Notes under the pieces: generated by a model | Told to the model about the DNA's origin: nothing | Database searches by the model: none | Seen by the model: the letters and a program-made list of their open reading frames with translations, nothing else | Position numbers and translations under genes: made by a program | In this document: positions 3,479 to 53,118 of the stretch, one piece after another | Numbering within the stretch: the first letter of the stretch is position 1 | Layout of the letters: every line of letters begins with the position of its first letter | Assembly (NCBI GenBank): GCA_950097015.1 | Contig: CATNEN010000039.1 | Coordinates: 13,640,001 to 13,704,000, forward strand | Reading direction: 5' to 3' | Length of the DNA: 64,000 nucleotides | From: Macrostomum hystrix | Taxonomy: Eukaryota > Animalia > Platyhelminthes

Positions 3479-3567
3479 GACAACAGAAGTGTGCAGCCGC
3501 TGGAGCTACTGTGGGGTCTCCTGCGGGGGAGGGGAAACGCGAATACAATCGCTAATGATTGCGAAGA

Positions 3568-19387: not shown

Positions 19388-21284
19388 GAAATATACTTGT
19401 TGCTATTTTACTAACAGCTATAAATGCAAATATTTGTTATAAATGCTTTATGTGGTTATTTTTAGATTAAAATGCTTAGAATTTAAATTCCTTATTGTGT
19501 GATTAAAATATATTGATTGGTTAGGTTATTAGCTAGACTGGTATCTCTCCTTGAATTGTTGAATTGGTGAAACAGTGATGGTCTGAAAGCAGATTTTTAA
19601 TTTAAATCAAAATTGAAATTTACCATTTTCCAAAATTGAAATTTTCTAAAAACTGTCTACTTACAATAACCTTTAAAATTAGCAGCCCAAATTTTAATGC
19701 GTGCCTTAACTCACACACTTTTCTGCAATAGCAATTTTTTTAGTTAAAATGTTTTGTATTTTTTGCCTAATGCTGATTTTACAAGAAATTTCTACACATA
19801 AAAATTGGCACATTAGCTAATTATATACTTTGCAGCATTTGCATGCTTTTTGCAAATCCTTTCCTTGAGACACCTTTTTACAGCACTTGTTACATTCCAC
19901 TGAGAGCAAGTCAGAGAATAATTTAAAATATTCATGTACAGTCACCCTTATTTTAGGCAGGCTAAGGGTTTACAAATGCCAAATTATATATTGTAGCAAA
20001 TATGCGATTCAGATTTTGACTACCTCTATGCTCTAAGTTAAGGAGGTACAATTAAGCAATAGGTTTATTTACTTATACAGGTTATATGAAAACTCAATGA
20101 CAAGCAGCCCCTTGAATGAATAGGCAGTTATCAGCCAATAGCAGAGTTCCTGCTCATAACAAAATCACAGAACACCCCATGTGCAGCACACCCCATCAAT
20201 TGCCAATTACAAGTTCTGTTTTTGTGAGCCTGCAATAGTGAGTGGCAAACTGGGTCATATTTTTAGCATTACACTAACAAAATTTTATTGTATACTAACT
20301 GTATCTTCCAAGAAAGGTTCAATAAAACATGCAAGAGCTGTAAAAATGTCATGAAATTTCAACTTTCAAATATTTTTCAAAATCAAAATTTGAGCAAAAA
20401 ATCAGAATTTCGGAAAATCAAAGGTTAGAAGTTGGAACAATGGAAGCCTAGAATTAGGTTGTTGCCTAGTCTAGTGTTTGTAGCCTAGTAAAAAACAATA
20501 TCACATTATTTTTATTACACATGAGTCAGAGCTAAAGAACTCAATTTTTAAAAAAAAAATTCTATGATGTTGACCCCAATGAGATAGTTATTGAAATAGA
20601 TATCATAAGCTCTGTCTTTTAGAAGTCCTTTTACATTGAAATGAAACAATCAAAATCAAATCAACAGCTTGCAATAGGTGGTGCTAGCCATCAACTCAGC
20701 AGTTTTGATGACTTCTGTAGTAAATATAGTAGAATGAAACTAATGTACATTAGCTATCTTACTTATCACTTATCAATTCAAAATATATGCTCAAAGTTAA
20801 TTTTTTACCATCAGTAAGCACTCTATTTGTTTGTCCTACTTTTTATGTATGGATGTGTACTTTAACCTTAACAACTAGTTTGGTAAATTATATACAACGA
20901 ACCCAATTATGTCCTGTAGATAAATAAAATACACCATACAATGTCAACAAAATACAATGGCAATCTGGATTATGATAATATCTTTCTCTATTTTATATAG
21001 GTTATCACTAAAAAATATAACTCTTTTTCTAGGCCAAGTGACGCCCAGCATAATACATATCATTTAAGTCTCTAAGCTCAAGTCTAGCACAAAAATATTT
21101 ATTCACCATGTTATTTCAGATTTTCATTCAAGGAGATATTAATTGCCAAACTGTCTAACAAGGAGACGAAAAAACTGCGGAAATTGTATTTAACCCAACT
21201 GGCTTTAGCAAGCTTGTTGGATTAGGCCGACTGTTTAATTAGTGAAAATATACCGGCTGAAACAGCAGCAGCAGCAACTGCAGA

Positions 21285-24200
21285 ATGCTAACTAGCAGCA
21301 TTAGTGGCAACAATGGTGAGAAGTCAGGCACATCAACTAATGTGAGCTCAAACAGCAATCATCATCATCAGCGCCATCATCATAATCAGACCCTGCGCCG
21401 TCTAGGCTGCCAGTGTTCGAATCCGCCATCAGCCAATGGCTCCGGGCTGGTTCGCTGTCAAAATTGTTCAGATTGGTTTCATAGGGACTGCGTGGCGCAC
21501 TTACTCGCTGCTGGAAACAACACAGATGGCGACTATGCATTTTGCTGTTCCGCCTGCTCCAGGCAGACAGCTAGTCCGGGTAGGTGTCTTTTTTCACCCC
21601 AGCCGATGCTGGTAACACTAAGAAATTAAGTGTTCCAATTCGAGCTCCAAAATTGTATTCCTTAGAAGCAGATTCGAACTCCCGACCTCTAATCCAAACT
21701 CCTAAACTTTATCCACTGGGCTGCAAGTTCGTAACATTCCCGACACTCTTAATCTAAAATCCCGATGCCCTGACTAAGATCTTAGATCCCTGACAGTCTG
21801 ACATTATCAATCTAAGACCCCTGATATTATCAATCTAAGACCCCTGACATTATCAATCTAAGACCACTGATATTATTAATCTAAGACCCCTGAAATTATC
21901 AATCTAAGACTCCTGACATTATCAATCTAAGACCCCTGATATTATCAATCTAAGACCCCTGATATTATCAATCTAAGACCACTGATATTATCAATCTAAG
22001 ACCCCTGAAATTATCAATCTAAGACTCCTGAAATTATCAATCTAAGTCCCCTGAAATTATCAATCTAAGACCCCTGAAATTATCAATCTAAGACCCCTGA
22101 TATTATCAATCTAAGACCCCTGAAATTATCAAGCTATGATTATTGACATTATCAATCTGAGACTGCCAAAATTTTCAATTTATGACCCTAACATTATTAA
22201 TCTAAGACCCCTGATATTATCAATCTGAGACCCCTGACATTTCAATCTAAGACCCCTGATATTATCAATCTGAGACCGCTGACATTTCAATCTAGGACCC
22301 CTGACATTATCAATCTAAGATTATTGACATTATCAATCTAAGACCCCTGACATTGTCAATCTAAGATCCCGATTCCCATTGCAACGTCAATCAAAGATGC
22401 CTTGACAAATCGCTGTATTCATGTTCACAGGCACACCAGAGGAGCATCGCTATCCCTATCAGCAGAAGCAGTATCAGCCGCCTCAACAGTTGCAGCTGAA
22501 TCTGCAGCAACAGCAGCAGCATTCCCAGCTACTGTCGCCCCAGAAGCTGTCCTCGCCTACAAAGCTATCCGGAGCGGCATCGTTTCACGAGACTTCCAGT
22601 GCCACGTACGGCACTGGCGGTGGCGGTCGCGGCGGACGGCACACCTCAGGCTCTAGAAAGATTAGTTTCTTGCCTCGCACCGACTCTGTTGTTCAGCAAC
22701 AGCAGCAATTAAGCAAGCCGTCAACTAGCAAAGCAGTTGTTAGCAGTGACAGTAAGATACAGTTTTTCGTTTTTTCCAATCCAGAAAAAAAGATGAAATT
22801 TATTTTTTAAATCCGTCCTGCAACTAAAACGCAGGCAAAGAATCTGTTAGCAACCGATTGGAAGCTTCTAGTAACCGACCGTCTACTAAGCCAGCGGTCG
22901 CCGATCAGAGCGACGCAGCTGACTCGCCAAAGATTGACGTCATCGCTGAAATATTTAGCGACACAACTCCGGGACACTCTGAGCACAAATGGCCCGATAT
23001 GAACTGCAGATTGTGCCTCACTGGATCGCCCGAGCCACAGGTTAGTTGGCACCCTATTATTTATTAGTCATTCTCTAAGATAAGCCGGTTGCTTCACTAC
23101 AGTTATCAGGGGTTTAAACAACCGGAACTTCAGATTCACTCACTAACTCGCTCGCTAAATCAATAAAACAGTAATACTTACATAATAGTTAGTCAATTAC
23201 TCGTTCACTCACTCACTCACTCACTCACTCACTCACTTAGTCACTCAATCACACAATCACTGACTTACTTATTTACTCATTCATTCACACACTCACTCAC
23301 TCAGTAACTCACTCAATCACTCAATCACTCACTCAATCACTCACTCACTCACTCACTCACTCACTCACTCACTCACTCACTCAGTCAATTACTCACTCAA
23401 TCACCCACTCACTCATACAGTTCTCCACCTGATTAGCTCGAGGCAAGTTAGTTACAGGGGTTACTTCAATCTTCGAAAAATGGTTTGATTTTGGGTTCAA
23501 AATACTCAGATACAAAAGTCAGAGAGAGTTCCACAAGAAATTAAGCTGGAGGACTCTCTCAGTCCAAAATATTTACTTTTGAAATTAATTAGGGCTAGAT
23601 CTAATCTACCTACTTTGATCACAGTATTAGGTCGAGGTTCGGTTTTCTACGGGTATTAAATTGAGTTAAATGAACTTAACGGTGAAAAAATATGAGCTTA
23701 TAGAGCTCATACTAACCGAACGCTTAAACGTTAGAAAGCTGCATGTTTATTTGAACGATTTAACTGTAAAAAAGGTAAAAAACACTTGCAATTGTTGAGC
23801 CGAACTGGCAACATTTGTTACATTGATCACCCATAAAAATCGTTTAAAGACATTGTTTAGATAAAAAGAAAACAAAAAACGCGTGGCAGTGCAAAACTAC
23901 GAGCTAATGGAACGCTTAAACGTTAGAGAGCTAATTATTCATTTCAAGGACACAACTTTGGGGCAATAACACTTGCAGAATGTTTTATGGACGCAGAGTT
24001 TCATCATTTTTTACTAAAAGTATCACGAGCTGCATATCCAAACCTTTGTGGTTGATTTTCTTTACTAAACTACTTAAAATGCTTTCTTTCAAGCTACCCG
24101 ATAAAAAGCTCACATCAAATGCTAACAGATAAGCTCAAGGTAGCACCTCAAGTTAATCCTGTAGCCATACAAGCAGTTAAGTATTGTTTAAAAGTTATTA

Positions 24201-27200
24201 CGTTTTCAAGTGATAAAAGTCATTTGGGAAAAAGGGGCTGACTGCCTTGCTTTGGGCTTAATGGGGCATTTTCTTCTTGCGCAGCTCGTTCATAAACCGA
24301 TCTTTGACCTTTCTCCATCCTCGGAGCTTCAAAATTGGCTCGGCAATTAGAAGTTCGTCTATTTCGCGTTTTCCCGGTACTCTACCATTCATGCGCTTAA
24401 GCATCTCGTTTTGATGCCGATCGAATGCTGCTCGCTCTTCGGCGGACCATTTTACGAATGGCATGGAAATTTTAGCATTCTGTTTTTTCTCGGTCACCTT
24501 GGTAATCTTTGCAGCAGGCACATAATCAGCATCACATAAGTCGTCTGACGATTCATCAAGATCAACTTTTCGGCCAGCGCGAGTCTTTAGGACCAAAGGA
24601 GCACCGCGAAAGTCCATTTCAGTTTCCATTTCTTCTTCATCACTGCTTTCGTCTTTGTCGGAAGCGCCGTCGTCGTCAGCCGGAGCATCGGGAATGTCGT
24701 CCATTGAAATCGAGTCGAGTGTTTTCCCTCGAATGCTCACAATCTTTCCTGAATCGATCGCAAGAAGGAGCTTGCTGGTCTTCGCTAATTCTAGATAGTC
24801 TTTCGTGAAAGTTGGTAAAACTGGCGGTGAACTGACATAGTATGTCCCATGTGGTCGCACAGCAATTTTAAATCACGATCGTTCAAGTCCATCAGCTGAC
24901 AAACTGTAGCTACGTACTTTCTTAGCTTGGTAGCGTTGATGCGTATTGGCTCCTTCAAATCCGGAACAAGTTGCAGAATTTTAGTCCGAGTCCTGTATGG
25001 GGACAGATGCTTGCATTCGGTCGACAGATTTGCGAAGACAAACGGATTTTTGTCCGAGTCCTGTATGGGGACAGATGCTTGCATTCGGTCGACAGATTTG
25101 CGAAGACAAACGGATTTTTGTCCGAGTCCTGTATGGTGACAGATGCTTGCATTCGGTCGACAGATTTGCGAAGACAAACTGATTTTTGTCCGAGTTTCCG
25201 CGGAAGTCGATTAGCTTCCCTAGTAACACACTTCGTCGCGGCAACGTCGCGTAAACGTCGCAAAGTTACGTCGCGGGAAGGGGTGATATGTCGCGCCACG
25301 CGACGTCGCGTTAACGTCGTTGCGCGACGTCGCGCTGAGGTCATCGCGTGACCATTACGCGACCACTATTAATACTGTATTCACAGATAATTTCTTCGTA
25401 CTTTTTGTAATTTGCCATGCATACGTACACACAACATACGTATACATACGTAACGCGATTGAAATTCCGATCCAATTAGTGTAAAGCAGTTTTTAAGCCG
25501 GTTTTAAGCCGTTAGCAGTTTTTAAATGCTGAAATTCACATCAGGAAACGCCAAGACATGACAGAGGCAAAACTTAACGATCAGGCTGCATCTGTGTGCA
25601 GCATTTTCTTTTATTCTCTGCGCGCGATCTGGGATAAAGAACTGGAATCGAATTGTGCGGCGCGTTTCGATAGAGACTGAACGAGTGAAACCCGTATAAC
25701 AATTTAACGTAGTTTAAGTAAAATGACAGAGCGAGTAAAATTATTGAGAGAAAGCAAAAATGACAGTAAAATACGGAGAGATTAGGAGATTAAAATGGAG
25801 ATTATATTGCTGAACATAATAGATCCATAGATTATATGTATGGATCATAGAGGGAACGACGCTGAGCTAAATTAAATAGCGTGTAACGTGTACAAAAAGC
25901 GAGAATTGACAAAGCGCGTAAAATCGCTGAGTTTTACAGGCTGATTTGATTTAGCATAAAATGCAAAGCTTAAAAGTAAAAATCGAATTCACTTACAAGC
26001 GCTTCTGCATCAGCAGGATTGAAGTTCAGATGCTCGACGAGCTGCCCCAGATCATCCAGAGCGCATGGTAGATCAACAGGCAGACTGGCAGCAGGCGCGT
26101 TCTTTTGCGCTGCCATTGCAGACACTGTGCGCTCAATGCGTTCCGCGTACGGCCGTAGGGAGGCCAGCTCCCTTAAAACAATCCTTTCGAACGCTGCAAA
26201 GACGAAAGTTATTGACTGCCAGATCACAATGCTCCGTAAATTTTTTTTACGCAAAAATGGCTGCACAGTTCCAGACTTTTAAACCAGGACACCCTGGATT
26301 AGGATACCGCAGCTTTAAAATTTCACAGTTTTTTGGTCATTTTGACTACTCACTTGAGCCAGTTGCAGAATCTCGCACAACCGAACCTGCCCCACTTGTG
26401 GCTGGTTGAAATGGAGAAGCGTGACTGGGCTCGTCAGCAGCAGCTGCAGTTGGCGTCTGCTGATGTGAATCATCCTGTCGCAGCTGGGATGCCGTGAACA
26501 ACGGAACTGTACGGCAGACCGGCATTGTTCCTGATGGCCGAGGTGTGTCGTCTAATTCGGCTGTAGAAAGAGAAGTTTTGCAGATGAGTGCGTGCTGTAT
26601 GTACTGTGATAAATGCGAGTCAAACCTGACATTGCTCATACTTACGCAATCGCGGAAATGGTGGCGGCAGATCGTCGTCGCTGCTGCTTGAATCCGAGTC
26701 CAGTATATTGGCTGTCCTCTTTGCCTTCGTACTCAGCTGATTTCTGGCGGTCTCCTGTGGTTCGTCAATAAATCTGGCAGGTGCAGCGCGCTTTCTGCTT
26801 GTCGCTGCCTCTGCATCAGTCGATAATTCATCGGCGCCGCCTGACGCACGAGCGAGTCGGCGTCGAGCTGTGCACTCGTCCGTTTTCGTCGACAAAATCT
26901 CGCAGTTGTGCAGCTCCCAGTCATCATTTGGCGCTAAATGCTTTGATCTGAATTTTGTTGCCTTTGTCATGCTTGTCGGCGGCCAACGGCAGCGCGTCCG
27001 GCCCACAAGCCAAACCTCGCTGACGTACTCGACGGAACCGTCCGCAAATTTGACAACGCAAAAGCTTGCCTGCAACAAAATTAAAGCAGGAATCTAAAGA
27101 AACATGTGGTGAGGACAATCTTGTCGGCGACAGGCAAACCATAAAACTTTCTCTTCACCTCTGTAATTCTTAATGTGTAGAGGTCAGCAAAATCTAAATT

Positions 27201-30200
27201 CGACACATGGTGGATGTCCAGCTGTTCGGATTTAACAGGGTATGCGAAGAATGACCTCTTTGGTTTTGAATCGGCGACACACCAAGCGGGACTCAATCTC
27301 CACCTGCAGGACATTCACGATTCTGTAGTAGCAGCTGTCTGAGCATTCAATGAAGGAATCATTTACGGCACTAACAGTCTGAATCTGATCGAAATGATCG
27401 CCCTGTACTGCTCAATGCACGAAGGGGGCATATTGGGAAGCGGGCCTGACCAATGCAGACCAATGAATTTTGTAGACTTGGCGGCTGATCGATTCACGTT
27501 GTCACTTTTTTCTTCGTGAATTCTATTGCAAACTTGCTCGAATGGTAAGTTGCTGGTTCTTAGCTTTGCCTTGATGGATTGCATATTGTTTTCGAACTTG
27601 AAAGCAGAAAACTGTCAAGGGAGCCGTTGTGCTTGACATAAGACGGAAGATGGAGCAGGCAATGCACGTTGTGGCTCATGAAATTGTCGCCGTAAATTTT
27701 CGCGCAGTCGGACACAAACATCCGAAGGAGTTCTGCAGCATAGTCCGCCAGCTGAATGCACCTTTCAGGATTACACAGGCAGAATATAGCGACGCTCAGC
27801 AGCAAAAAATGCTTGTACAGCTTGGAGGGAAGCACCGATTTCAGCACAACCTTTCCTGAATACAACAGGAATGAGCGGAATTCAGTCGCTTTCCAACGCC
27901 GGCATTCACCCAGTGGTCTCGGGTCTCGAGCAAACTCCGATGTAATGAAATCGGCAACATACAGGATGTGACCAGAAATTTGCAAAACGTGACTATTAGA
28001 CAGTCGACTTGGCAGTTGACCGCCAAGCCATTGCAACAGTAGCCGCTTTATCACCCCAAGACATACAAGATGCATATAGTCTAGGGGAAAAGCTGTAATC
28101 ATATCAATCCTCAAAGCCGTCAGGGGGCTTGTTCCGGTATGGTGCTCCTCATCAATCTGTTGCCTGAACGAGTCATCCGTGCGCAATGGTGCATCAACGT
28201 CTTCCAGAATTACGTAGCCAACGTATCTACCATAAGCAGTACACTGCTCGCATGAGGAATATCCGCCGTGTCCCTTGATGCATTTAATGAATGCACGAGC
28301 TCGAGCGTCGCATATGAACTTGATGTCGAACCGGTCTTCAAGACCTTGCAGCTCAGCAACCAGATCCTTCAAATATTCCTCAAGAGGTGGCTTTTGCTCT
28401 CCACAGTACAGACCTATTATAGCTGGCGGGCCTTGTCCAATCAGCAATCGTTTAAAGCATCAAAAACTCAAACGAAACTATATCGTTTCAGTTGTTTGCT
28501 TTGAAATCTGCTGCAGAGCTGCAGAGAGGTAACGCTTTTGGATTCGAATTGAGAGACGTGGAGCAGTACGTTTTAACAAACGCATGCCACGAAAGAAATA
28601 ACTCCTATTAATAATTCACTCAAGCAAATGAATTGTGTTTTAAAACCACTTATCATTTGCTAAATCTAACACGTATTGTAACATAGTGAATTATAATACG
28701 TTCCTCTGGAAAAGTCATTTGTAAAGTACTTTTAGGACTTAGCACCCGCAAACAATTAAAGGTGTCATAAATTAAGTAGCACAGCCTAGGTTTGGGGCTA
28801 TATTCGGATCATCTAAGTTTGTTGCTACACATTTAATAATACCAACCGTTTTAATTACACTAAACATTTTTGTTCATGCACAAAATTATTAAAACTGCGA
28901 TGCATTTTTCCGTGGCAATGCCAATTTCAATCGCCATCTAATAAATCTAGAGGCAATACGTATTGAAGATGGCATACACTGTCTAATTAAAGGTATAACA
29001 GGTAGATGTAGTCAAATTCCAATGTTTTTTGATGCTTTGATTTCCGACGTTTTCGCGACGTTTTCGCGACGTCAAAGTCTTACGAAAAAAGGCCGCGACT
29101 TTCGCGACCTACCGCGACGCTTACGCGACGTTGCCGCGACGAAGTGTGCTACTAGGGCTTGTCAATTAGGCGAACAATGTCAGTTGGAATAATTACTGGA
29201 ACTATCTGTCCGTGTTTGCCGACCACCTGTACTAGCAGCATGCTCTTCGAAAGCTGCACCTCAAGTGGAGTTAGATTAAGATTTTCAGCGTCAGTCGGAT
29301 CACCAGCAGCGGCATGTACTTTGGCACTTTGGTACATTGCCAGATGCTTTTTGAAAACTTCAGATGCTCGTCTCTTATTAAGTAATGATAGCCTGAAAGC
29401 AATAAGCTCAGCTAGATTTCGCCACTCTTCTTTGTTTGTGATTTTGGCGTCAGAGAAGAATCCAATTTCTTTTTTTAAGTAGGTGTTCAACAACATTAGG
29501 TCGGCAGTTAGCGGCAACACCTCAGGAACCGCAGCCTTGCGAACTTTCAGAGGCTGAAGAGCTGACGATAAGATTGATTTCATCCAACAGGAGTCGTGGA
29601 CCACAACATATTCTTTGTATTGTTTCGACGCAGATTTATTGCCTGCTTTCAATGCTGTTACCATGCAGATCTCTGCACAACACTTCAGGCTGTACCCTAT
29701 TTTAAGTACAAGACTTGGAATGCCGAATCGTTCATTTTGTGTAGCAGCCGGGTTTTTGAAGCCACACACATTTCGAGTAGCGATGACGCGAAAATCAAAA
29801 TATCTAGCCTCGAGAGCGGCTGACAGTCAGATTTGGCTCGCTTGTTACAATTCGCAACTCTTCTAAAAACCGAGCCATTTCTCGCATTTTGGTAGTGCAA
29901 AGACTCGCTCGCCTCTGCCAGAAATGTGCACCTCCCACCACTAGAGCCCCAGATTCATAATGGCCGCATCATTTCTAGCAATTAGCTTTTTGTCATCGCT
30001 GTTCATTCGTTCGACGACTTCTAAAAAATCGGCTGGATACTTGTTCGGAAGTAGTGCTGCAGAGACTATAGCTTTGCCAGCTGCCACAAATAACTCGTGT
30101 TTCTTAGCGCCATCCTCATAATCGACCGGTCGTAATTTACAATTGTGACAATGCTTATAGAGCTCACGAGCACGAAAAAAACCAAAGCAGAATTTGCTAG

Positions 30201-33200
30201 GAAGACAGCTGGAAGACACCTCGGTAGAACCTTCATCTCGGATGACAATAAGTTCTCCTTGTTTGGTTTTTGATAAGACTTGAATATTGTGCTCGAAGTC
30301 GCCCAGCAGACGTAGCTTGGTCATGGCCCTCTTATACTCTTGAGAAGACTTCGGATGGGCAGCAGCCGCAGCAACAGCCATCTCATTTTCGTGGCGGCAA
30401 AGTAGGTGGTCCCATGGACGAGAATAGAGGAAACCACTATATTGGAACGAATGTTTCTTTTTCACCTTTTTATCGGCATCAGCAGCCACGGATTCATCGC
30501 CAACATCCTCATCTCTTCGAACATTCAGCGCATCAACAATGCCAGAATTAGGGTCATCAACAAGTTCGCCATCTTGAAGTTCGCGAAAAAAGCTGCTCAC
30601 AGCATTGACGTCCAAAAAGTCTGTCTCGATGAACTCATACACATCGTTGCCAACATTAGGAGCAGTCACAGAACCAGGATCAGTTATCCCAAACAGGGAG
30701 CAGCCGCTTTAGTCACCGAGCCAGGAGCAGCCGCTGCAGTCTCTAAGCCAGGAGCAGCCACTGCAGTCTCGAAGCCAGGAGCAGCCGCTGCAGTCGCCAA
30801 GCCAGGAGCAGCCGCTACAGTCGCCAAGCCAGACGGAGCCGGTGCAGTCTCTAAGACAAGAGCAGCCGCTACAGTCTCTAAGCCAGGAGCAGCCGCTGCA
30901 GTCTCTAAGCCAGGAGCAGCCGCTACAGTCTCTAAGCCAGGAGCCGCCGCTACAGTCTCTAAGCCAGGAGCCGCCGCTACAGTCTCTAAGCCAGGAGCAG
31001 CCGCTGCAGTCTCTAAGCCAGGAGCAGCCGCTGCAGTCTCTAAGCCAGGAGCAGCCGCTGCAGTCTCTAAGCCAGGAGCAGCCGCTGCAGTCTCTAAGCC
31101 AGGAGCAGCCGCTGCAGTCTCTAAGCCAGGAGCAGCCGCTGCAGTCTCTAAGCCAGGAGCAGCCGCTGCAGTCTCTAAGCCAAGAGCAGCCGCTGCAGTC
31201 TCTAAGCCAGGAGCAGCCGCTGCAGTCTCTAAGCCAGGAGCAGCCGCTGCAGTTGCCAAGCCAGGAGCAGCCGCTGCAGTCTCTAAGCCAAGAGCAGCCG
31301 CTGCAGTCGCCAAGCCAGGAGCAGTCGCCAAGCCAGGAGCAGCCGCTGCAGTCTCGAAGCCAAGAGCAGCCGCTGCAGTCTCTAAGCCAGGAGCAGCCGC
31401 TGCAGTCGCCAAGCCAGGAGCAGCAGCTGCAGTCGACGTGTCAACTCCTGCACTCTTGTCAGTCTTCTTCGACACTGCCTTGCCTTTCGTACTTCTCTGA
31501 ACCTGGTAGGAATAATTCGTGAAAGTTACAAATGACTTTAGAATTATCGTAAAAGTACTTTTGCACTCAGCTCAGCCTAATCAGACTGCGATGAATTTCA
31601 CTCTGATCTGACTCATATCGGGCTGCAGGACTACATCGAGGTTGTCATCGCACTCAGCTCGACCTAATCCCAATTCATTCAGTTCACTCTGATCCGAAAG
31701 CCCAGCTCGTGTCGGACTGCAGGACTACATCGAGGCTGTCATCGCATTCACATGGACCTTATCATATTCAAGCATAGCGCCATAAACAAGTGTTATACGA
31801 AAGTACAATGAAAGTGTAAAGAAACGGCAGCGCTCCACTTGGCGCTCTGAATTTTCCGGAACATTCAGCTGGATGGACGTATCCGTCTCTAACGTGGCTT
31901 CGGTACAGGCAGCTGCTTGGAATGACGCAAAAGAGTTGGCTGCAGTCACCGAGCTAGAAGCATCAGCGGCAGTCGCCGATCCAAGAGCAGCTGTTACAGT
32001 CTCTAAGCCAGGAGCAGCCGCTGCTGCAGTCGCTGAGAGTGTTATCCTGCTCTGCTCTGGTGCTTGCACTGAATTTTGTGATCTTTTTGTGTCTTTAAAT
32101 TGTAAGACGTCTGAAATACTTGGCAGTTGACTGATGATGCTATCAATGTGTTTGAAGGCATTTTTTTACTTTTTAAATCTGGCGTGCTCTTTGCTTTGCA
32201 AGTGTGCATTGAAGTCGGTAAACTTTCCGCTACAATTTTCGCATTGTCGCATTGTAGGAAGTTTTAAGCCGGGACCCATATCGTCGTTTCTTTCCTGAAG
32301 CATTTGCTTGTCTTGAGCCTTACAAAGCTCGATGAAATATGTTGTACCGAATAGACTGATGTCCTGGTAAACGATCGGTCGATATATCTTTTTCATGTCT
32401 GATATTACGATGGCTGGCGGCGATAACTTTAAGTCGCTAAAGGCGGATAGATTTTCTTTTCCACGGTATGCACCTCGAAAGCAAGTGATTGGCAAAACAA
32501 TAATACAAAGCTCTTTTGCCTTCTGAAGGATGTCTTTTACACAGTCAGCTTTGCATTCCGCAAGCAAATCATCGACATCTACGTCTTCTGAGTCGGTATT
32601 GACCTTGCTGCCAAAAGTCGTTACCACAGCATCGACCTATACAAAATGTAAGCAGTAGTAGTAATAAGCACTCCATTGTGAAATGTTTCCCAAGAAATTT
32701 CACGATTGGTTTTTCAAAATCAAATCCGTACCTCTTTTGAAAAGAAATGATCAACAATGACACCACAACTCTGCGTAAGAAAACTTTCCAGATGAGCAGA
32801 GCATGATGATCCAGACTTGTTCAAAACGAATACTCGTTTTCCATATAAAAGGCCTTGAGGAGCGCCGTCGCTACGTCCAACCTAGCAAAAAACAGGTTTC
32901 ATACTTTATATGCTGAATGACTTCTCTAACAAAATGACAATGGATGACGCTCAAAGTAATGTATTGCAATAATGCGTATCCAAAACGAAAATACATATAT
33001 TGACAATGAACTAAAAGCCTTGTAATTGCAAAACGTCCCTGTAATTAGGTAAAAAAGGACCTCAGACCGAGTTGGATACGACAAGTGAAAAACCTCACGA
33101 TTCACGCATGTAAATTTATATATGGACTTAATAGTACGGGTGTTTCATAAATTCACTCTTATAAAGAATTACCACTGCTGTCGGGCTGGAAGGAATAGCT

Positions 33201-36200
33201 CGTTCATCGAGGTTGTAATCGAACTCAGCTCGACCTTATCCCAATTCATTGAGTTCACTCTGATCTGAAAGCCCAGCTCGTGTCGGACTGCAGGACTACA
33301 CCGAGGCTGTCATCGCATTCACATGGATAATCTCATTTTCAAGCATAGTGCTAAAAGTCTTATATGTAAGCTAAAGTAACTTGAATTGAAATACAATTTA
33401 GTTTGTCTTTGAAAAAACGGTTCACTATGTTAGAAGGTGTTTGTTGCTTATTGTTTTCTTAAGTGACCTAAATGTTGAGCTAGTGACTTTACCAGCTATT
33501 TTTTTGCAAATGCTATTCTTAGAACTGCCAAGCCAAGCAAGTGATCCGTTTTTAAAGACAGCGAATGAGGCAGTCTATTTCATTGTCATCATACGAGCGT
33601 AGAATGCAATTTTACTTACTGCAATTGGAGTGAAATTTGCGCAGCACCCTTTCTGGAAAGTTTTTCCTTGGCTCCCATGTCGCATGTTTTCTAAAGATTT
33701 TTATGTACATTTGGGAATTTCTCAGAGCAAACACAATATCATTTTTACACTAGATTTATTAAGTGGATATTTCTTACCTTTTGCAGCCTTCCCAGTGAAC
33801 TAGGTACTCGTAGTCACCGTTTGTCTTGCATTTTCGACATTTTAGAACGCTCAAAACGTTGTGCAACTTCTTCGACTTTCTCGTGGGCATAGCTCAAGGA
33901 AGCGTCAAGAAGAGCAGAACGCTTTCTGACTTAGTTCTTCTAGTTCTTCTGACTTCTGACTCGCTGATACAGCTTCTTAGAGCAGTAGGAAATAAAACGG
34001 CTTTAAAATGACACTTCTTAACTTCGTAAGAAGGAACCTTTGACTTTGCGTGAGTGGGATTATATCGAGGGCTTGCATCGAGGGGCTGATTGGAGAAAGT
34101 TGGACTCCTCTCGCTTTCTGTTGGGGTGTCGGGGTTGGGGTATTGTACACTGACCCTGTACACGCAGCAGTTCTGCTGCAATTCTATTGGCTGACAAACA
34201 AGGCTCTTGTTCTCACTCTTCAGGATAACATCGAGGCTGATTCTCAGTAGATATTGAAACTCACTCAATTGCCTGTCTGCAGGATAACATCGAGGCTGAT
34301 TCACTCAGTACTCAATGAAAGCTTTTTGAATGGCTTTTAAGTTGGGCATTCTAATCCTGGGATACTGAGATTTCGTTTTCTAGAATCCGTGGAATGCTGC
34401 TGTTCTGGATTTTTTGGGGATTTTTTTGAAAAATTGAGCTTTGATATTGATTTATTAATGAGAGTTAAGTAGAGATTGTATACAGTACAGCTCAAAGAAG
34501 TTCGCAAGCTTTCTTTTGTCTCACATTTCTGAGCTTAGATTTTATTTCCTTAGTCTTTAGTTTTTGTTTTTAGCTGATGAATCCACAGTTTTTGTGGCTG
34601 ATTCAACAAATTTATTTGTTAATGAACAAGAAAAGTATCTAGCTTTGAGTGACAATCGAGCATTGCTCACCAATAAGTATCATATTTCACTTAGTGCAGG
34701 AAGATACACCGCTGGCATCAGTTGATTCATAGTTGTGCTAATTTCTTGCAATATTTATTCTTGGAGCTCATTAAAGGCAGGGTGTGGCAGTAATGATACT
34801 TAATGACGTCTAAATCCCTTTTTGCATTTCACCATACTCACTCAAATCGGCAAAAACAGGGTACACTCGATTCTCGAAGTGAGTAGAAATTCCTAAGTTT
34901 TACAGGAAATCGATGGGGGGTTAGGTCGAGGGGACAAAAAGCCAAAAAGCCCGGTAACACTTTAGAAACTTTTTAAGCTTCATAAATTGTTTAGAAGTAG
35001 TCAACGAGGCATTTTGGGTCGCAATTCTTTATGTCAATTCAATTGGAGCCCGAAAAAAAGGACCTCAACCTAAATCCTCGAGCTAAAAAAATCTCGAGCT
35101 AGCCGTGATTCTCAACAGGCAGAGTATCGACCTAATCGGGTGGAGACTAACACACTCACTCACTCACTCAATCACTCACTCAGTAACTCACTTAGTCACT
35201 CAGTAACTCACTTAGTCACTCGATCACACAATCACTCACTCACTCACTTACTCAATCACTCACTCAATCACTCACTCAAGCACCCACTCAGTCACTCACT
35301 CACTTACTCAGTCAATTACTCACTCAGTCAATTACTCACTCAATCACCCACTCAATCACTCATTTACTCTTTCAATATTTTTGTTACTCGACCTCTTACT
35401 TACTCGCTCACTTCTCAAACTGTAAATCACTTCTTAAAATATTTTAATCACTTACTCAATCACTAATTAACTCACTTATCTATTTGTCGCCCCACTCGCT
35501 AACTCTATTCCTGACGAGTTTTTACTTGTACTTTCTTGCCGGAAGATTACAAAAAAACACAAGCTTGTTGGGACCCGGTTTAGTATAAGGTACTAACCAG
35601 AGCCTACTAAAAGTAGTATGCATCGCGACCCTATAAAATACAGGATTTATTAAGACAGCCGCTGCGGCGCACTAGTCTATTGCAAGACTTGGACAGCGGC
35701 ACGCCCTACCAGTCCTATTACACTAGCGCCCCGTCTGCTGGTGAAGACGCAGCTCATACTACTGTTAGCGACGGTGCGTCAGCCGGCGACGATAATCCAA
35801 TGGAGCTTTGCGAACAAGACGATCTAGTTGAACAGCCAGCGGAGCATCAATCAGCGGCTGATCCCGTTGTTGACGATGGTCGAGAAGCTCTAGCTAGGCA
35901 GCAGCTAAGCCGTCGTATTGCTGGAGTGCAGCAGCAGCAGCAGCAGCATCAGCCGCGTAGGCATATCTGGTCTGGCGTGGCCGACACTCAGGTTGGCGAT
36001 TTCCGACTGCGAGCCTACCCGGTCAGCGGGCCCGACTGCGACAATCCGCGCCGAATGGCAAGCCACTTCCCGTCCGATAGGCGGCTAATGCTGAAGGGTC
36101 GACTAGCCAGACATGTGTGCTTTGACTATCTAAAACAGATGCAACGAGTTGGCACTAGGGACATTCTAGTGCTCAGCTGCGTACCTGATGGACAGGTGAG

Positions 36201-38939
36201 AGGCTTTACTTCTTTATGATATTCACTATCATTAGCTCGCTCACTCACTCAGTTATCCATTCACTCACTCACTCACTCAGTTATCAATTCACTCACTCAC
36301 CTCAGTTATTCATTCACTCACTCACTCACTCAGTTATCTACTCACTCACTCAGTTATCCATTCACTCACTCACTCACTCAGTTATCCATTCACTCATTCA
36401 CTCACTCAGTTATCTATTCACCCATTCACTCACTCAGTTATCCATTCACTCAGTTATCCATTCACTCACTCACTCACTCAGTTATCCATTCACTCACTCA
36501 CTCACTCAGTTATCTATTCACTCACTCACTCAGTTATCCATTCACTCACTCACTCACTCAGTTATCCATTCACTCACTCACTCACTCAGTTATCCATTCA
36601 CTCATTCACTCACTCAGTTATCTATTCACTCATTCACTCACTCAGTTATCCATTCACTCACTCACTCACTCAGTAATCCATTCACTCATTCACTCACTCA
36701 GTTATCTATTCACTCATTCACTCACTCAGTTATCCATTCACTCACTCACCTAAGTTATCCATTCACTCACTCACTCACTCAGTTATCCATTCACTCACTC
36801 ACTCACTTAGTTATCTATTCATTCACTCACTCACTCACCTCAGTTATCCATTCACTCACTCACTCACTTAGTTATCTATTCACTCACTCACTCACCTCAG
36901 TTATCCATTCACTCACTCACTCACTTAGTTATCTATTCATTCACTCACTCACTCACCTCAGTTATCCATTCACTCACTCACTCACTTAGTTATCTATTCA
37001 TTCACTCACTCACTCACTCAGTTATCCATTCACTCACTCACTCACTTAGTTATCTATTCATTCACTCACTCACGCACTCACTCACTCAGTTATCCATTCG
37101 CTCACTCACTCACTCAGTTATCCATTCACTCACTCACCTCAGTTATCCATTCACTCACTCACTCACTCAGTTATCTTTTCACTCACTCACTCAGTTATCC
37201 ATTCACTCACTCACTCACTCAGTTATCCATTCACTCACTCACTCACTCAGTTATCTATTCACTCACTCACTCAGTTATCCATTCACTCACTCACTCACTC
37301 AGTTATCTATTCATTCACTCACTCACTCAGTTATCTATTCACTCACTCACTCACTCAGTTATATATTCACTCATTCACTCACTCAGTTATCCATTCACTC
37401 ACTCACTCACTCAGTTATCCATTCACTCACTCACTCACTCAGTTATCCATTCACTCACTCACTCAGTTATCCACTCACTCACTCACTCACTCAGTTATCC
37501 ATTCACTCACTCACTCACTCAGTTATCCATTCACTCACTCACTTAGTTATCCATTCACTCACTCACTCACTCAGTTATCCATTCACTCACTTACTCAGTT
37601 ATCCATTCGCTCACTCACTCACTTAGTTATCCATTCACTCACTCACTAATCTAAGCATTCACTCGCCTTCTAGTCTATGCACTCACTCATTCACTAATAT
37701 TTACAATTGCTGATTTATTCAGACTAGCACGCTGAATCGATCAATGCCTCTCTGAACAAGCCAGTCACTTTTACATTTGAATCTCCCGCGGGCTTCAGGG
37801 TCACCTAGATACATTGTATGAAACCCTGACTTTCTCCGCAGCCTTACAAACAGTCCTACCTTGGCTTGCACCAGGCCCTGGTAGTGAAGGACATTGTTGC
37901 CGTGTGCGTTAATAAGCCGCCTCACGTGAAAGATTTCTACATCTACGCTTTGCCAGCAAAGGCGCCTGTTCCGTCCGTTCTACTGCCGTTTCATGGACCG
38001 GGTATGATCTTAAAAAGCAATTGCATACTGCTGTTTCCTAGCTTGACTAAGTAGTGCGTTTTGCAATGCTTTCTTATTCACCAATTTATAATTTGCCCAG
38101 GTCTAAGCGACGAAAGGCCCCACCTTCTGTTGGCAATCTTGGTGAAATCTCGCACTGGAGAACATCATCATCAGCAGCAGCAGCAGCAGAATCAGCGTCC
38201 CTCGGCAGCCTCCCATCCCGCCAATCCTTCGCCTCCGCTCTCTCCGTCGGAAGTCCCCAGCCCGACGCCTAGCAGCAGCGAAGATTACGATAATGGGCAG
38301 CTGTTGAACCCTCAACCGACGTTGGTGAAACAGCAGCAGCAGCAGCCGCCGCCGCCACCGCTAACTGCTAGCAGAAACGAAACTCCACCGCCTCCGCCGC
38401 CGCCACCGCCTCCCCCACCGCCGCCCCCACCACCGCCACCGCCGCCGTCGCAGCAGCAGCAGGAGGTTCTCTCCGTTGCGGCCGACCTTCCAGTTGCGGC
38501 TTATTCAACGTCAATGTCTGCAGCAGATTATTTGACTGCAGTGGACGATACATCACCAGTCCCGAGCTATTGGTCAAACTCAGTCGCGCCGATGATGGAG
38601 TCTCAGCAGCAGCAGCAGCAGCACATTGATGCCTACAGCACGGCTTGGCCCAGTGTTGAAGGCTACATAACTCAGCCGCAGCCAGGTCAGATGATGCCAA
38701 TGTCCTACGGAGCACCTGCTGAGTTTTCACCAATGGGCTACATGCAACAGCAGCAGCCCATGCATCATCAAATTCCTCATCATCAGCCATATGCGCCGCC
38801 GCATCCTCACTTTGCTCCTCGCCGGCCATTTGGATTTCGCGGCGGTCGCGGCGGTCCAGGCAGAGGAGGCGCCGGCTTTGGACCGGGTTTTATGCGCGGC
38901 GGCCGGCCCGGTGGTCGGGGTCGGTTTGCACCGTATTGA
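21285..38939 (+). CDS. DIDO1/PHF3/pps-family PHD-finger + SPOC domain protein (~790 aa); exons 21285-21579, 22431-22751, 22835-23040, 35644-36195, 37842-38001, 38101-38939
   Basis: PHD finger CQC...CQNCSDWFHRDC...CCSAC. DTTPGHSEHKWPDMNCRLC resembles the DIDO/PHF3 DTTxxHxxHLFDLNCKIC motif. SPOC: IWSG...AYPVSG...GRL...DYL...HVKDFYI...PVPSVLLPFHGPG. All five GT-AG junctions are phase-compatible (2373 nt total). Pro/Gln-rich and RGG C-terminus. Confidence 0.85.
21790..22370. repeat. 23-bp intronic minisatellite (CTAAGACCCCTGAYATTATCAAT)n
   Basis: Directly visible. Confidence 0.92.
23205..23415. repeat. (TCAC)n microsatellite, left flank of the YR element
   Basis: Directly visible; continues at 35150-35470 on the other side of the insertion. 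Confidence 0.85.
24258..25217 (-). pseudogene. C-terminal half of tyrosine recombinase plus acidic linker and Myb/trihelix-like tail
   Basis: NATKLRKYVAT (HxxR box equivalent), LCDHMGHTMSVHRQFY (H and catalytic Y), ELAKTSKLLLAIDSGK...GKTLDSI, and tail KWSAEE...VPGKREI...RGWRKVKDRFMN. Disrupted by a 68-bp triplication and a frameshift at ~24792. Confidence 0.8.
24984..25195. repeat. 68-bp tandem triplication inside the YR coding region
   Basis: GTCCGAGT recurs at 24984, 25052, 25120 and 25188 with near-identical intervening sequence. Confidence 0.92.
25970..27078 (-). pseudogene. EnSpm second ORF (DUF4806-type protein), fragmented/spliced
   Basis: FCVVKFADGSVEYVSEVWL...CRWPP...PNDDW at the N-terminus and LPCALDDLGQLVEHL later are typical of the accessory ORF of animal EnSpm elements. 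Broken over several frames. Confidence 0.6.
27081..28447 (-). pseudogene. EnSpm/CACTA transposase, N-terminally truncated and frameshifted
   Basis: Motifs CDARARAFIKCIKGHGGYSSCEQC, FPLDYMHLVCLGV, WKATEFRSFLLY, HNVHCLLHL. SAFKFEN continues in another frame near 27600. Confidence 0.85.
29158..30690 (-). pseudogene. N-terminal Zn-binding region and first half of the tyrosine recombinase
   Basis: HLLCRHENE...LRLLGDFEHN...GELIVIR...CLPSKFCFGFF...LYKHCHNC; PSLVLKIGYSLKCCA; LPLTADL; LNKRRASE (catalytic R box); VGKHGQIVPVIIP (catalytic K). Matches the metazoan YR protein family often found with SET domains. Stops/frameshifts around 29770-29945. Confidence 0.8.
30700..31440 (-). repeat. 27-bp coding tandem repeat (TAAAAPGLE)n, linker in the YR element protein
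   Basis: (AAGCCAGGAGCAGCCGCTGCAGTCTCT)n. ORF 31475-30684 is preceded by an acceptor CAG|GTT at ~31504. One further unit occurs at ~31985-32035. Confidence 0.85.
31618..31777. repeat. Internal direct repeat, copy A (pairs with 33181-33348)
   Basis: ~145-160 bp at roughly 90% identity (by eye) to 33181-33348. Contains GCTCGACCTAATC, which matches the element terminus. Confidence 0.85.
32070..32881 (-). pseudogene. DBF4/ASK/Chiffon-like module (BRCT-like motif N, motif M, motif C zinc finger); exons 32881-32732 and 32636 onward
   Basis: Spliced (GT-AG, phase 0, 95-bp intron) translation: LLYGKRVFVL...LESFLTQSCGVIVDHFFSKE|VDAVVTT...DILQKAKELCIIV (motif N), LKLSPPAIVISDMKKIYRPIVY (motif M), CENCSGKFTDFNAHLQSKEHARF (DBF4-type Zn finger). 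An in-frame TAA at 32168-32166 is followed by the expected KNAFKHIDSIISQLP. Confidence 0.8.
33181..33348. repeat. Internal direct repeat, copy B (pairs with 31618-31777)
   Basis: CATCGAGGTTGTAATCGAACTCAGCTCGACCTTATCCCAATTCATTGAGTTCACTCTGATCTGAAAGCCCAGCTCGTGTCGGACTGCAGGACTAC... aligns to copy A. Confidence 0.85.
33620..33890 (-). CDS. Chromodomain split over two small exons (33890-33778, 33690-33620); probable N-terminus of the YR element protein
   Basis: ATG at 33890. MPTRKSKKLHNVLSVLKCRKCKTNGDYEYLVHWEGCK|RKHATWEPRKNFPERVLRKF has the EYLVxWxG and TWEPxxN chromodomain signatures. GT-AG junction in phase 2. Confidence 0.72.
35150..35470. repeat. (TCAC)n degenerate microsatellite, right flank of the YR element
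   Basis: Directly visible. Confidence 0.85.
36235..37695. repeat. (TCAC)n-based intronic minisatellite with AGTTATCCAT spacer
   Basis: Directly visible. Confidence 0.92.
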
Positions 38940-45267: not shown

Positions 45268-45289
45268 ATTGTGTGTAAAACTGTCAAAC

Positions 45290-46068
45290 AGGTTTTCTAC
45301 TGTCTAAAACGTTAGCTACTGTCGAACAGGTTATAGCTACTGTATAACAGGTAATTGCTACTGTCTAACAGGTTAGCTACTGTCTAACAGGTTAGCTACT
45401 GTCTAACAGGTTAGCTACTGTCTAACAGGTTAGCTACTGTCTAACAGGTTAGCTATTGTCTAACAGGTTAGCTACTGTCTAACAGGTTAGCTATTGTCTA
45501 ACAGATTAGCTACTGTCTAACAGGTTAGCTATTGTCTAACAGTTTAGCTACTGACTAACAGGTCAGTAGCTAAACGGCTACTGTCTAACACGTTAGCTAC
45601 TGTCGAACAGGTTATAGCTACTGTATAACAGGTTATAGCTACTGTATAACAGGTTATTGCTACTGTCTAACAGGTTAGCTACTGTCTAACAGGTTAGCTA
45701 CTGTCTAACAGGTTAGCTACTGTCTAACAGGTTAGCTACTGTCTAACAGGTTAGCTATTGTCTAACAGGTTAGCTACTGTCTAACAGGTTAGCTATTGTC
45801 TAACAGATTAGCTACTGTCTAACAGTTTAGCTACTGTCTAACAGTTTAGCTACTGTCTAACAGGTTGGCTACTGTCTAACAGGTTTTATCTACTGTCTAA
45901 CAGGTTGGCTACTGTCTAACAGATTTGCTACTGTCTAACAGTTTAGCTACTGTCTAACAGTTTAGCTACTGTCTAACAGGTTGGCTACTGTTTAACAGGT
46001 TATAGCTACTGTCTAACAGGTTAGCTACTGTCTAACAGGTTAGCTACGGTCTAGAAGGTTAGCTACTA
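45290..46068 (+). repeat. 19-bp minisatellite (GCTACTGTCTAACAGGTTA)n
   Basis: Directly visible; same family in inverted orientation at 52093-53011. Confidence 0.92.
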
Positions 46069-47314: not shown

Positions 47315-50300
47315 TGTCAAGCCGTGCTCAGGAGTATAAGGCAAGACTGCCCGTAGGCTTGGTTTGGGTTAGTAGCGAATTTAGTTTATTAGTCACGATG
47401 TTTCACGATACACTTGCATATATACTCCATGTATATAAGTAGACGAGTCAACAAGGCTTAAAAGTCAACAGGTGTTGAGTACATCAGTAATCAATATTCA
47501 GGCTGCGTACATTGGGTCAGAGTGCGGTTGGCGCGCAGGCCTGCAGATCTACCACAGTTCACTTGCTTAACACAGTTCACGGTTCATTCACGGCTCAAAC
47601 CCCGGCACGTCATCTCCCCCCTTCGAACCGCTCGGGCGGCACGCCCCGATTCGCACGGAGGTTGTAGCTCGGTCTCTGGGGAGTCACGGCCGGTGACGGC
47701 ACTCTGCCACTGGCCGCTGGCGGCGGATCTGCGGTCTCCCCTGGCGCGCTTGCCTGGGTCAAGGACGCAGGCATGTTTTCATGTCGCGCTTCAGGCAAGT
47801 CGGCGGGTCTCGGAGCAACTTCGTGGCTGACTGCGGCTGTCGCAACGTCTCCATTGCCGCCGGCTTCGTGCCGACGCAGTTGGTCTAGGTGGGCGAGCGT
47901 GACCCGGTCACCCTGTCGCATGATCAGTGCCGTGTTGGACCCTTTCTGCGCCAGGAACTCCGCCTTCTCCGGTGTGGCACTCGGCGTTGAGCGTACCAGA
48001 CCTCAGAGCGGATCGCTGTCTTCATGGTGATGGGGTTTCGCAGCTGCCTTCCCATTAGTTGCGCCGGGCTGAACTCCCTTCCGGCGTGCGGTACACATCG
48101 GTAGTTCAGTAGGATCCGTGCCAGGAACGCGTCGTACGGCTCCTGCTGATCCCAGCCCGCCGAGGCCACCTTGATTGTCTGCACCATTCGCTCGGCCAGG
48201 CCGTTGGACTGGGGATGATATGGTGGGGTTTTCACAGCGCGGCAGCCGATTCTGTGCAGCCAGCTCACCAACCCCTCATCATGGAACTCTGCAGCATTGT
48301 CACTCACCAGGGTTCTCGGCACTCCGTTGCGGGCGAAGACCTCCTGGAGGACCCGCCTGACGGTGGCGGCGCTCTTGTCGGGCACTCGGATAGCCTCCGG
48401 CCAGGCAGACATGGCGTCGACCAGGATCAGCAGGAGCCCGACCTTCGGAACGTGAGCGTGGTCCATGTGCACGCGCCCCCAAGGCTCAGACTCGGCGGGC
48501 CATTGGTGGACACTGCTGTGACTACTTTGACGTTGCTTGGCGCAGGTGTGGCAGGCACGGACGAATCCTTCGACGTCACCGCAGTAGCCTGGCCACCAGA
48601 CGGAGTTGCGGACCAGCGCTCGAGTGCTCGTGGCGCCCGGATGCGCCCCGCTGTGCACCAATTCCAGGACGCGACTGCGTAGTGAAGCAGGAATGACCGG
48701 GCGATCGCCGTAGCACACCACCGAGCCGTCTAGAGTGAGCGTATGTCGAATTGCTTTGAATTGCCGTTCCGCAGGCGAGCAACCCGACCAACGGTTTCCA
48801 GCTATCCTTCGAGTGATGTCCGCTAGCAGTCTATCGCGCTTTGTCTCCTCTGCCAGCTCAGTCCAGCCGATGACGCTTTCACCGGCCCAATGCACCAGGT
48901 GTTGTTGGGGTGCCGCCTCATATGGATCGTCCGGGACGTCAGCGAAGTCAAGACGAGACAACGCATCGGCGTGCGGGATGTCGACTCCGCGGGCGTACTC
49001 AATAGCGAAGTCAAATCCCATGAGGCGGATCGCCCAGCGCAGGATGCGGGCATTGGCGACTTTAGGGAGCTGCTGCCGTGCCCCGAACAGAAACTCGAGA
49101 GGGCGGTGGTCGGTTCGCAGAGTGAAGCGCTTGCCCAGTAGGAACTGACGGGACCTCTCCATTGACCACACAATCGCCAGCGCCTCCCGTTCGATGTTGG
49201 AGTAGCGTGTCTCTGCCTCCGTCAACCGCCTGCTGAAGTAGATGACGGGATGACCTTCTTGCGTGAGCACGGCGGCCACCGCCTTCTCACTGGCGTCGGT
49301 CGTGAGCGTTGTTTCCTTTGTCCGGTCGTATGGCTGGATGATCGGGCTGGAGCTCAGGAGCTTCTTTAGCTGGTGGAAGGCCGCTTCCTGTGCAGTTGTC
49401 CAAGTGAACTCCACTCCCTTCTTGCGCAGCTGGTTCAGGGGCTCGACGATGTGCGCATAATTGTTGACGAACCTTCCGAAGAAATTGCAGAGGCCGAGGA
49501 AGGACTCCAACTGGCGACGGTCGCGTGGTGCAGTGATTTCTTTGATCTTGCTGACCAGTCCAGGGTCCGGAGAGATTCCTTCTGCACCGATTCTGTAGCC
49601 GAGGAACTTGACGCTCTTGGCGCCCAAGTTGGACTTGGCGAGATTTATGTTCATTCCGGCTGCCTGGAGGATCTTGATTACTTCATCGACTTTGGCTTTG
49701 AGATCTTCGCTGGAGCGACCTCCGAGCAGAATATCGTCTTGATAGATGACCTTGCCGTTCACCTCCTCAAGGGTAGTCTCCATGGCCTTTTGAAAGATGG
49801 CGGATGCTGACTTGAGGCCCGGCACGAGTCGGGTGTAGCGAAACAGACCGAGTGGGGTCGCAATCGTAGTGACTTCCCTGCTCTTCTCCTCGAGTTCAAT
49901 CTGTAGATACGCGTCAGATAGGTCGAGGGTCGCGAAGTCAGTCATTCCGGCGACATCCGAGAAGATGGTCTCGACGGTTGGCATTGGATAGGTGTCTCCG
50001 CACACTTGATGATTGACCCCCGCCTTGTAATCGGCACAAATTCTGATGTTGCCGTTGGGTTTGAGGACGCAGACGATTGGTGACGCCCACTCGCTACCGC
50101 CTTCGGTCACTGGTTCAATTATTCCTTCAGCCTGGAGGCGCTTCAGCTCTTGGTTGACGCGGTCGCGCAGGTGCAGCGGCACCGCTCTGGCTGCGCAGTA
50201 GAATGGCTTGGCACCTTCGATCAGCTTGATTCTGGCTTGGAAACCCTTCAGGCAATTGAGGTGCTGTACTGCAGTGCCTTGGCCACCGACTGTCTGCCTC

Positions 50301-53011: not shown

Positions 53012-53118
53012 ACCACTGCCTCATTAAGAAATCTATTCCTTCAGCAGCTCAATGAATAAGCTCTGTCAATCGGTGGACTTCTCATCCGTGCAATTCAGTG
53101 ATGTCTTCAGTCCAGTTG

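Follow-up and report, generated by a model that had tools for sequence, protein, structure and literature searches.

Captured chromatin and cell-cycle modules are known from several kinds of mobile element, among them chromovirus integrases, Ulp1-carrying Zisupton and CryptonS elements, and PCNA-binding transposases. The known links between transposons and replication run through the clamp or the fork; we know of no transposon, and found none, with a kinase-activating subunit of the replication-initiation machinery. Full-text searches of a library with few subscription papers and no Repbase Reports, where such an element might be described, returned no Dbf4 or zf-DBF cargo in a transposon or Crypton, and the titles and starts of abstracts of the papers listed held nothing on a Crypton chromodomain recombinase, a Macrostomum Crypton or a transposase-Cdc7 link of this kind.

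Among described elements, the CryptonV DNA transposons are YR-encoding and include some families that are microsatellite-specific (PMC8869645). The element described here is like them in having a recombinase-like gene and in sitting in a (TCAC)n microsatellite, at one site, and unlike them in containing a DBF4 cassette. Cryptons are proposed to excise as circles, and no terminal repeats are reported for CryptonA and CryptonI and direct repeats of 5-6 bp for CryptonF and CryptonS (PMC3212892), whereas the present element has imperfect 20-bp inverted ends (18/20). These ends exclude it from CryptonF, CryptonS, CryptonA and CryptonI. It shares with CryptonI and CryptonA the presence of a short, internally deleted derivative, as reported for those groups (PMC3212892). 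The carrier probably works in the manner of a Crypton, with CryptonV as the closest likeness.

Starships, which are fungal YR elements, likewise carry host-derived coding sequence (PMC11162782). In contrast to them, the present element has an animal host, is 7.8 kb long as opposed to tens to hundreds of kb, and has its cargo within the recombinase gene, where Starship cargo lies downstream of the recombinase (PMC11162782). DUF3435 is found among the weak Atlas look-alikes of the recombinase core (0.86), and the Starship captain test gave no Pfam DUF3435 match. Host-derived sequence is also described in Pack-MULEs (PMC11162782), and a C48 peptidase in CryptonS (PMC3212892); the likeness to such module-capturing transposons lies in host-derived domains added to the protein of a mobile element.

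The module itself is like the DBF4/ASK/Chiffon family of Cdc7 activators in its N, M, C order, CCHH ligands and post-finger helix. In that family, the docking partner of motif N is Mcm2 and that of motif C is Mcm4 (PMC8927117), and DBF4 residues 215-330 are necessary for activation (PMC7416108). The module differs from the family in its location within a mobile element, where chromodomain exons flank it and a repeat exon is fused to it, and in having a premature TAA and a short loop in motif N. The DBF4 cargo is real and apparently unreported; the element is of a known kind, the copy is dead, and the function is predicted.

Boundaries and setting of the outer element

Within the window (the whole 64-kb stretch of DNA that was analysed), the outer element lies antisense in an intron of a host gene, with the donor near 23041 and the acceptor near 35643 (Table 1). 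The PHD and SPOC exons on either side probably belong to one gene, which we take to be of the DIDO/PHF3 type. After subtraction of a nested element and one TSD, the outer element measures 7,782 bp. The score of 18 for its inverted ends was reached by none of 300 shuffles. Additionally, the motif TTAGSTCGA has seven matches in the window, with 0.75 expected; six of the seven are in the element, five of these no more than 230 bp from an end.

A contig from run X4, an outdoor metagenome from a study other than that of runs X1 and X2, bears on the unity of the element. This 649-nt contig (depth 15) covers 34714-35152 and then continues for 163 further letters, and the 30 letters shown of its loose end match 23618-23647 at 28/30, with the junction at 23647/34714. 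To judge from this match, the contig is an internally deleted derivative, in which DNA from near the left end is joined to the right end. Thus, both ends belong to one element. Rfam gave no match within 23000-35600, and no related loci were seen in the viral contigs or metagenome contigs scanned.

Element-specific intronic repeats at 31563-31803, 33205-33370 and 34217-34302 contain the terminal motif TTAGGTCGAG as internal copies. A repeat of this kind immediately precedes the DBF4 cassette and could bear on how the cassette was captured. Run X1 has a multi-copy piece around 31700-31725.

Elsewhere in the window, an uninterrupted 1196-aa Gypsy-type pol ORF (protease, RT, RNase H, integrase) at 47927-51514 (-) is flanked by inverted arrays of one 19-bp satellite (45280-46067 and 52107-53012), and a Mariner-type transposase ORF (PF01359, HTH_48) is found at 1128-2237 (+). 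Exons of an SK potassium channel (2540-3505, -), a rhodopsin-type GPCR (53122-54324, -) and an ASC/DEG-ENaC channel (62005-63276, +) lie amid many simple tandem repeats.

Table 1. Features of the outer element, the DBF4 module and the surrounding host gene, in window coordinates.
Feature	Position	Strand	Evidence or remarks
Host PHD...SPOC gene	21261-36216	+	Pfam PHD E=1.1e-05, SPOC E=4.3e-05
(TCAC)n microsatellite, left flank	23205-23415	+	Tandem repeat
Whole outer element	23422-35146	-	11,725 bp; decayed; tyrosine-recombinase type, CryptonV-like
Left imperfect terminal inverted repeat	23422-23441	+	18/20 match
Recombinase-like C-terminal part (TKLRK...HMGH...FY)	24261-25214	-	ORFs 25210-24794, 24872-24261; 68-bp triplication, frameshift
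Nested CACTA/EnSpm-like element	25218-29157	-	44-bp TIR (CCCTAG...), CTT duplicated; splits recombinase
Recombinase-like N-terminal and core parts	29155-30708	-	ORFs 30708-29944, 29826-29155; stops and frameshifts
Repeat exon	30687-31502	-	27-bp unit x 27.7 (AAAPGLETA), ends at first frameshift
Linker exon	31839-32110	-	In frame with DBF4; own phase-1 acceptor TTTCAG at 32111
Motif N remainder, motif M, motif C finger, TAA, post-finger helix	32118-32636	-	Pfam, PDB, alignment; relative in run X4
Intron within motif N	32731-32637	-	95 nt, GT-AG, phase 0, after FFSKE
DBF4 motif N, first half (LYGKRVFVL...DHFFSKE)	32881-32732	-	Pairwise and hhalign matches to relatives
Intronic repeat	33205-33370	.	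89% alike to 31634-31803; terminal motif copy in each
Exon 2: chromodomain second half	33620-33690	-	Pfam Chromo profile 29-51, E=0.081; phase-1 GTAAGT donor
Exon 1: ATG and chromodomain first half	33778-33890	-	Pfam Chromo profile 3-26, E=0.0015, under cut-off alone; GTAAGA donor
Right imperfect terminal inverted repeat	35127-35146	-	18/20 match
(TCAC)n microsatellite, right flank	35153-35362	+	Same orientation as left flank

The DBF4 module and its relatives

The first-pass annotation had reported motifs N, M and C in this order inside about 220 aa, motif N split by a 95-bp intron, and DBF4-like helix sequence past a premature TAA. These observations were borne out. Measured from where motif N starts to where the post-finger helix ends, the module is 210 aa long, and the intron is as described (Table 1). 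The second half of motif N reads VDAVVT...DILQKAKELCIIVLP, starting at 32636 on the minus strand, and the same exon holds motif M (LSPPAIVISDMKKIYRPIVYQ) and motif C, a CCHH finger of the form CENC-x9-H-x5-H with 4/4 zinc ligands kept. The TAA is at 32168-32166, 3' of the zinc ligands, and is followed by KNAFKHIDSIISQL, the sequence of the post-finger helix. It presumably cuts the helix after the finger within human DBF4 residues 215-330, by alignment to PDB chain 4f99_B and the human residue numbering.

The zf-DBF profile match that was looked for on the strength of that annotation was also found. Pfam PF07535 matches the part before the stop at E=5.2e-07, and the score rises when X is placed at the stop (E=1.4e-12, 47.8 bits against a cut-off of 24.8). 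Among PDB sequences, human DBF4 chain 4f99_B matches best (E=2.9e-05, across motifs M and C), with yeast Dbf4 next. Motif M, which has no Pfam match of its own, aligns to 4f99_B from residue 9 of that chain, and to six relatives. The motif N exon, for which Pfam gave no match when it was searched alone, gave pairwise matches to two DBF4-type proteins of Macrostomum lignano (E=6e-4 and 1e-4) and, with hhalign, a match to an alignment profile (prob 79.6); three of the relatives that it resembles match Pfam BRCT weakly. An AlphaFold model of the DBF4 exon (mean pLDDT 52) is confident only near the finger. At E<=0.001 it has four PDB matches, each of them a Cdc7-Dbf4 chain, which add little beyond the sequence match, and comparison with viral structures gave no fold match at E<=0.001. 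The reading frame through motif C is not intact in this copy, as it contains the TAA; the approximately 740 coding bases of the cassette hold this one stop, and both sites of the 95-nt intron are kept. On its sequence, the module is a pseudogene of the DBF4 family.

The possibility that the stop is an assembly error, which the same annotation had raised, is refuted by the sequencing runs. Two contigs cover the TAA with 0 differences, one of 1597 nt from run X1 (depth 76; this run is possibly the source of the DNA) and one from run X2 (depth 2, from the same study). Thus, as the stop is present in contigs of two runs, it is not an assembly error. Depth in X1 is flat over the DBF4 exons (76.2) and just one version is seen; no second contig was found in X1 at >=80% identity over these exons, where a coverage hole proves nothing. 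Run X4 holds a relative of the DBF4 exon that is about 95% alike, with 11 differences in 214 nt plus three gap letters over 32109-32322, 11 differences in 258 nt and zero gaps over 32350-32607, and no net frameshift over the 472 nt covered. The X4 copy and the one described here may go back to a single dead insertion that a related or sister species inherited. Run X6 gave an empty result, which is no proof of absence.

A scan of 1.84 billion representative proteins gave seven matches at E<=0.001, five of them with zf-DBF; P0002 and P0003, with no zf-DBF, were rejected as spurious. The best and fourth matches are A0A1I8HXN8 (P0001) and PAA77783.1 (P0004) of M. lignano, to which the spliced module is 35% and 30% identical, respectively; identity to the other relatives is 25-30%. 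The two M. lignano DBF4-type proteins fall in separate 50% clusters, and one of the genes has three near-identical annotated copies. In a 7-row tree, from which the cluster mates P0008 and P0010 were left out, the module and the M. lignano rows group together with support of 95/95, subject to long-branch warnings. The DNA of the window therefore probably comes from a macrostomid flatworm. Spans from motif N to motif C in other proteins of the family are 189 aa (P0006), 229 aa (P0001), 283 aa (P0004) and 298 aa (P0007). The 210 aa of the module fall between P0006 and P0001, so its compactness is not special to the cargo, and the description of the module as a minimised DBF4 has to be given up. 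An SRG stretch inside motif N of P0001, P0004 and P0007 is absent from the module, and absent from P0006 too. P0006, a 231-aa protein whose gene lies on a 521-kb contig, is a DBF4 that is very compact by nature, and P0001, with a motif repeated in its C-terminal part, may be carried by an element too.

The recombinase-like gene and the place of the module in it

Exons 1 and 2 of the element gene, each carrying part of a chromodomain, join in frame. The 27-bp array of the repeat exon occupies 30697-31434, and copies of its unit are also found in the linker exon, at 31939-32033. The long-ORF pieces that follow contain R, K, xxR, H and Y in what we take, by eye, to be the motif order of a tyrosine recombinase. 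In the ESM Atlas, the recombinase core is nearest to animal clusters at 0.95, and among named clusters it is nearest to recombinase-type families at 0.83-0.86, with the best 10/10 in one family or clan; both are leads only. The recombinase-like gene gave no Pfam, PHROG or PDB sequence match, and the model of its protein failed (pLDDT 36). From the motifs and the Atlas leads we infer that the long element gene encodes a tyrosine recombinase.

The gene is split by a nested element with subterminal CGCGACG repeats, a transposase-like ORF at 28459-27563 and further ORFs at 27093-26623 and 26278-25973. Pfam gave no relevant match in it, and the CACTA/EnSpm label is one that we assign from motifs. 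DBF4 as cargo of this nested element was rejected, the module being outside its TIRs. The first-pass placing of the module inside a transposon therefore stands for the outer, recombinase-type element and falls for the CACTA-like one, and its view of the module as captured cargo, not a nested host gene, agrees with a position within the joined ends of the element and with fusion to element repeat sequence. Other lesions along the gene are a frameshift near 30690, stops and shifts at 29943-29827, the nested element, the 68-bp triplication and a shift near 24815. The TAA in DBF4 is thus one of at least six, as would be expected had the copy decayed as a whole. The copy is decayed throughout, and nothing in it acts today.

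The module is located between the chromodomain exons and the linker exon, and its frame, if read through the TAA, runs into the linker exon with its 27-bp unit. It looks like a cassette inside the recombinase gene and not a free mini-gene, and the exons would be spliced into one mRNA. Two splice forms can be drawn. Skipping of DBF4, from the phase-1 donor of exon 2 to the acceptor at 32111, joins exons 1 and 2, the linker and the repeat exon into 424 aa with 0 stops, and inclusion of DBF4 gives 640 aa with one stop. As the skipping acceptor is intact in this copy, the cassette could always have been spliced out. Entry into motif N in frame with exon 2 is possible only through a weak AAG acceptor at 32853; there is a strong TAG acceptor at 32881, but its phase does not match that of exon 2. 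Motif N entry, by the weak AAG acceptor or with a further lesion, is the weakest joint of the fusion model. Weak searches for proteins joining zf-DBF to a chromodomain or recombinase passed 0/380, 0/5676 and 1/7991 candidates, and the one that passed was P0004, with zf-DBF only.

Run X5, a wastewater RNA library compared as contigs, from which transcription is not inferable, contains a more distantly related version of these parts of the element: the chromodomain exons, the linker exon and the 5' region. A 632-nt contig departs from the window sequence at 32117, 7 nt ahead of the acceptor at 32111, with at least 255 unlike letters, and the first 20 letters of this loose end have no match in the 64-kb window at <=3 mismatches. 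Past the other end of the linker exon, the X5 loose end has a canonical GTGAGT donor at the place where, by eye, the window has GTGGAG. This relative suggests that the element family works without the cassette. Alternatively, the loose end at 32117 could be an intron after a more remote DBF4 exon, collapsed to 9 nt in the window. X5, the sole RNA run compared, has no RNA over the DBF4 exons, and its gap at 32118-33599 is no proof of absence. On the simplest reading of these sequences, one branch of the element family gained DBF4 as an insertion into the intron that separates exon 2 from the linker exon. Capture at the DNA level is plausible from the presence of the intron in motif N, and the cassette may have been kept by selection.

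Probable capture, decay and possible role of the cassette

For a cut-and-paste element, the only way to gain copies is to move in step with replication. The reading to which we give an even chance is that the cassette was captured from a flatworm DBF4 gene into the recombinase-gene intron, giving a predicted chromodomain-DBF4-repeat-recombinase fusion that would tie excision to S phase. In this predicted protein, motifs M and C would recruit and activate the host Cdc7, motif N would dock on MCM, and the chromodomain would read chromatin. A recombinase tethered to MCM might thereby bring Cdc7 to itself and license its own excision in S phase, and an element that excised cleanly, leaving replicated DNA and re-entering unreplicated DNA, would rise in copy number. 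A broader proposal, which is speculative and which we consider rather unlikely, is of an animal lineage of tyrosine-recombinase transposons with a built-in DBF4, in which chromodomain, MCM docking and a local Cdc7 switch control copying and the timing of jumps, with splice forms with and without the activator.

Alternatively, the cassette may be a neutral hitchhiker, a piece of host DBF4 captured once, spliced out through the acceptor at 32111, never useful and decayed along with the element. We consider this rather unlikely. In keeping with it, the skipping frame has no stop, the best acceptor (32881) enters motif N out of phase, the X5 relative departs at the edge of the cassette, and neither a transcript nor a fused protein was found in the X5 contigs or the weak protein searches. 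However, the frame of the cassette agrees with that of the downstream exon (a chance of 1 in 3), one stop is present in about 740 coding bases with the zinc ligands and both intron sites kept, and the X4 relative has no net frameshift in 472 nt. The single version in X1, where a hole proves nothing, is a hint of a large distance between the host gene and the cassette, whose motifs are nevertheless kept.

The fusion reading can also be set against two others in which the module stands apart from the recombinase. In the model of the first-pass annotation it is a separate cargo gene or short product, with its own start in the intron or an end near the finger, acting as a free Cdc7 activator or a decoy. 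The phase mismatch between motif N and exon 2 is consistent with this, as is the presence of other candidate splice sites (33038, 32925, 33098) in the 740-bp intron ahead of motif N, but there is no in-frame ATG directly upstream of motif N, and the frame, read past the TAA, enters the linker exon of the element. Additionally, the TAA cuts the post-finger helix, on our assumed numbering in the region given as needed for activation (PMC7416108). A separate product is improbable. That the module is a nested host DBF4 gene, its stop an assembly error or its position merely amid transposon debris, is far less credible still. In its favour, X1 shows only one version of these exons, but the stop is present in contigs of two runs, the two ends of the element are joined in the independent X4 contig, the DBF4 exon is fused to element repeat sequence, and other DBF4-type genes exist in M. 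lignano, where one of them is annotated in three nearly identical copies.

For a neutral cassette, the locus would amount to the ordinary capture of a gene fragment by an element that is now dead. With one relative that has the cassette, one that lacks it, and matching splice phases, the locus is a compact case of exon shuffling, in which the donor is a host cell-cycle gene and the recipient a transposase gene. It also offers a testable case of whether tethered DBF4 can redirect DDK to a chosen locus or substrate. On the broader proposal, a selfish element would have taken possession of the trigger of replication initiation. An activator of the origin-firing kinase carried on a transposon would be a new route for coupling to replication.
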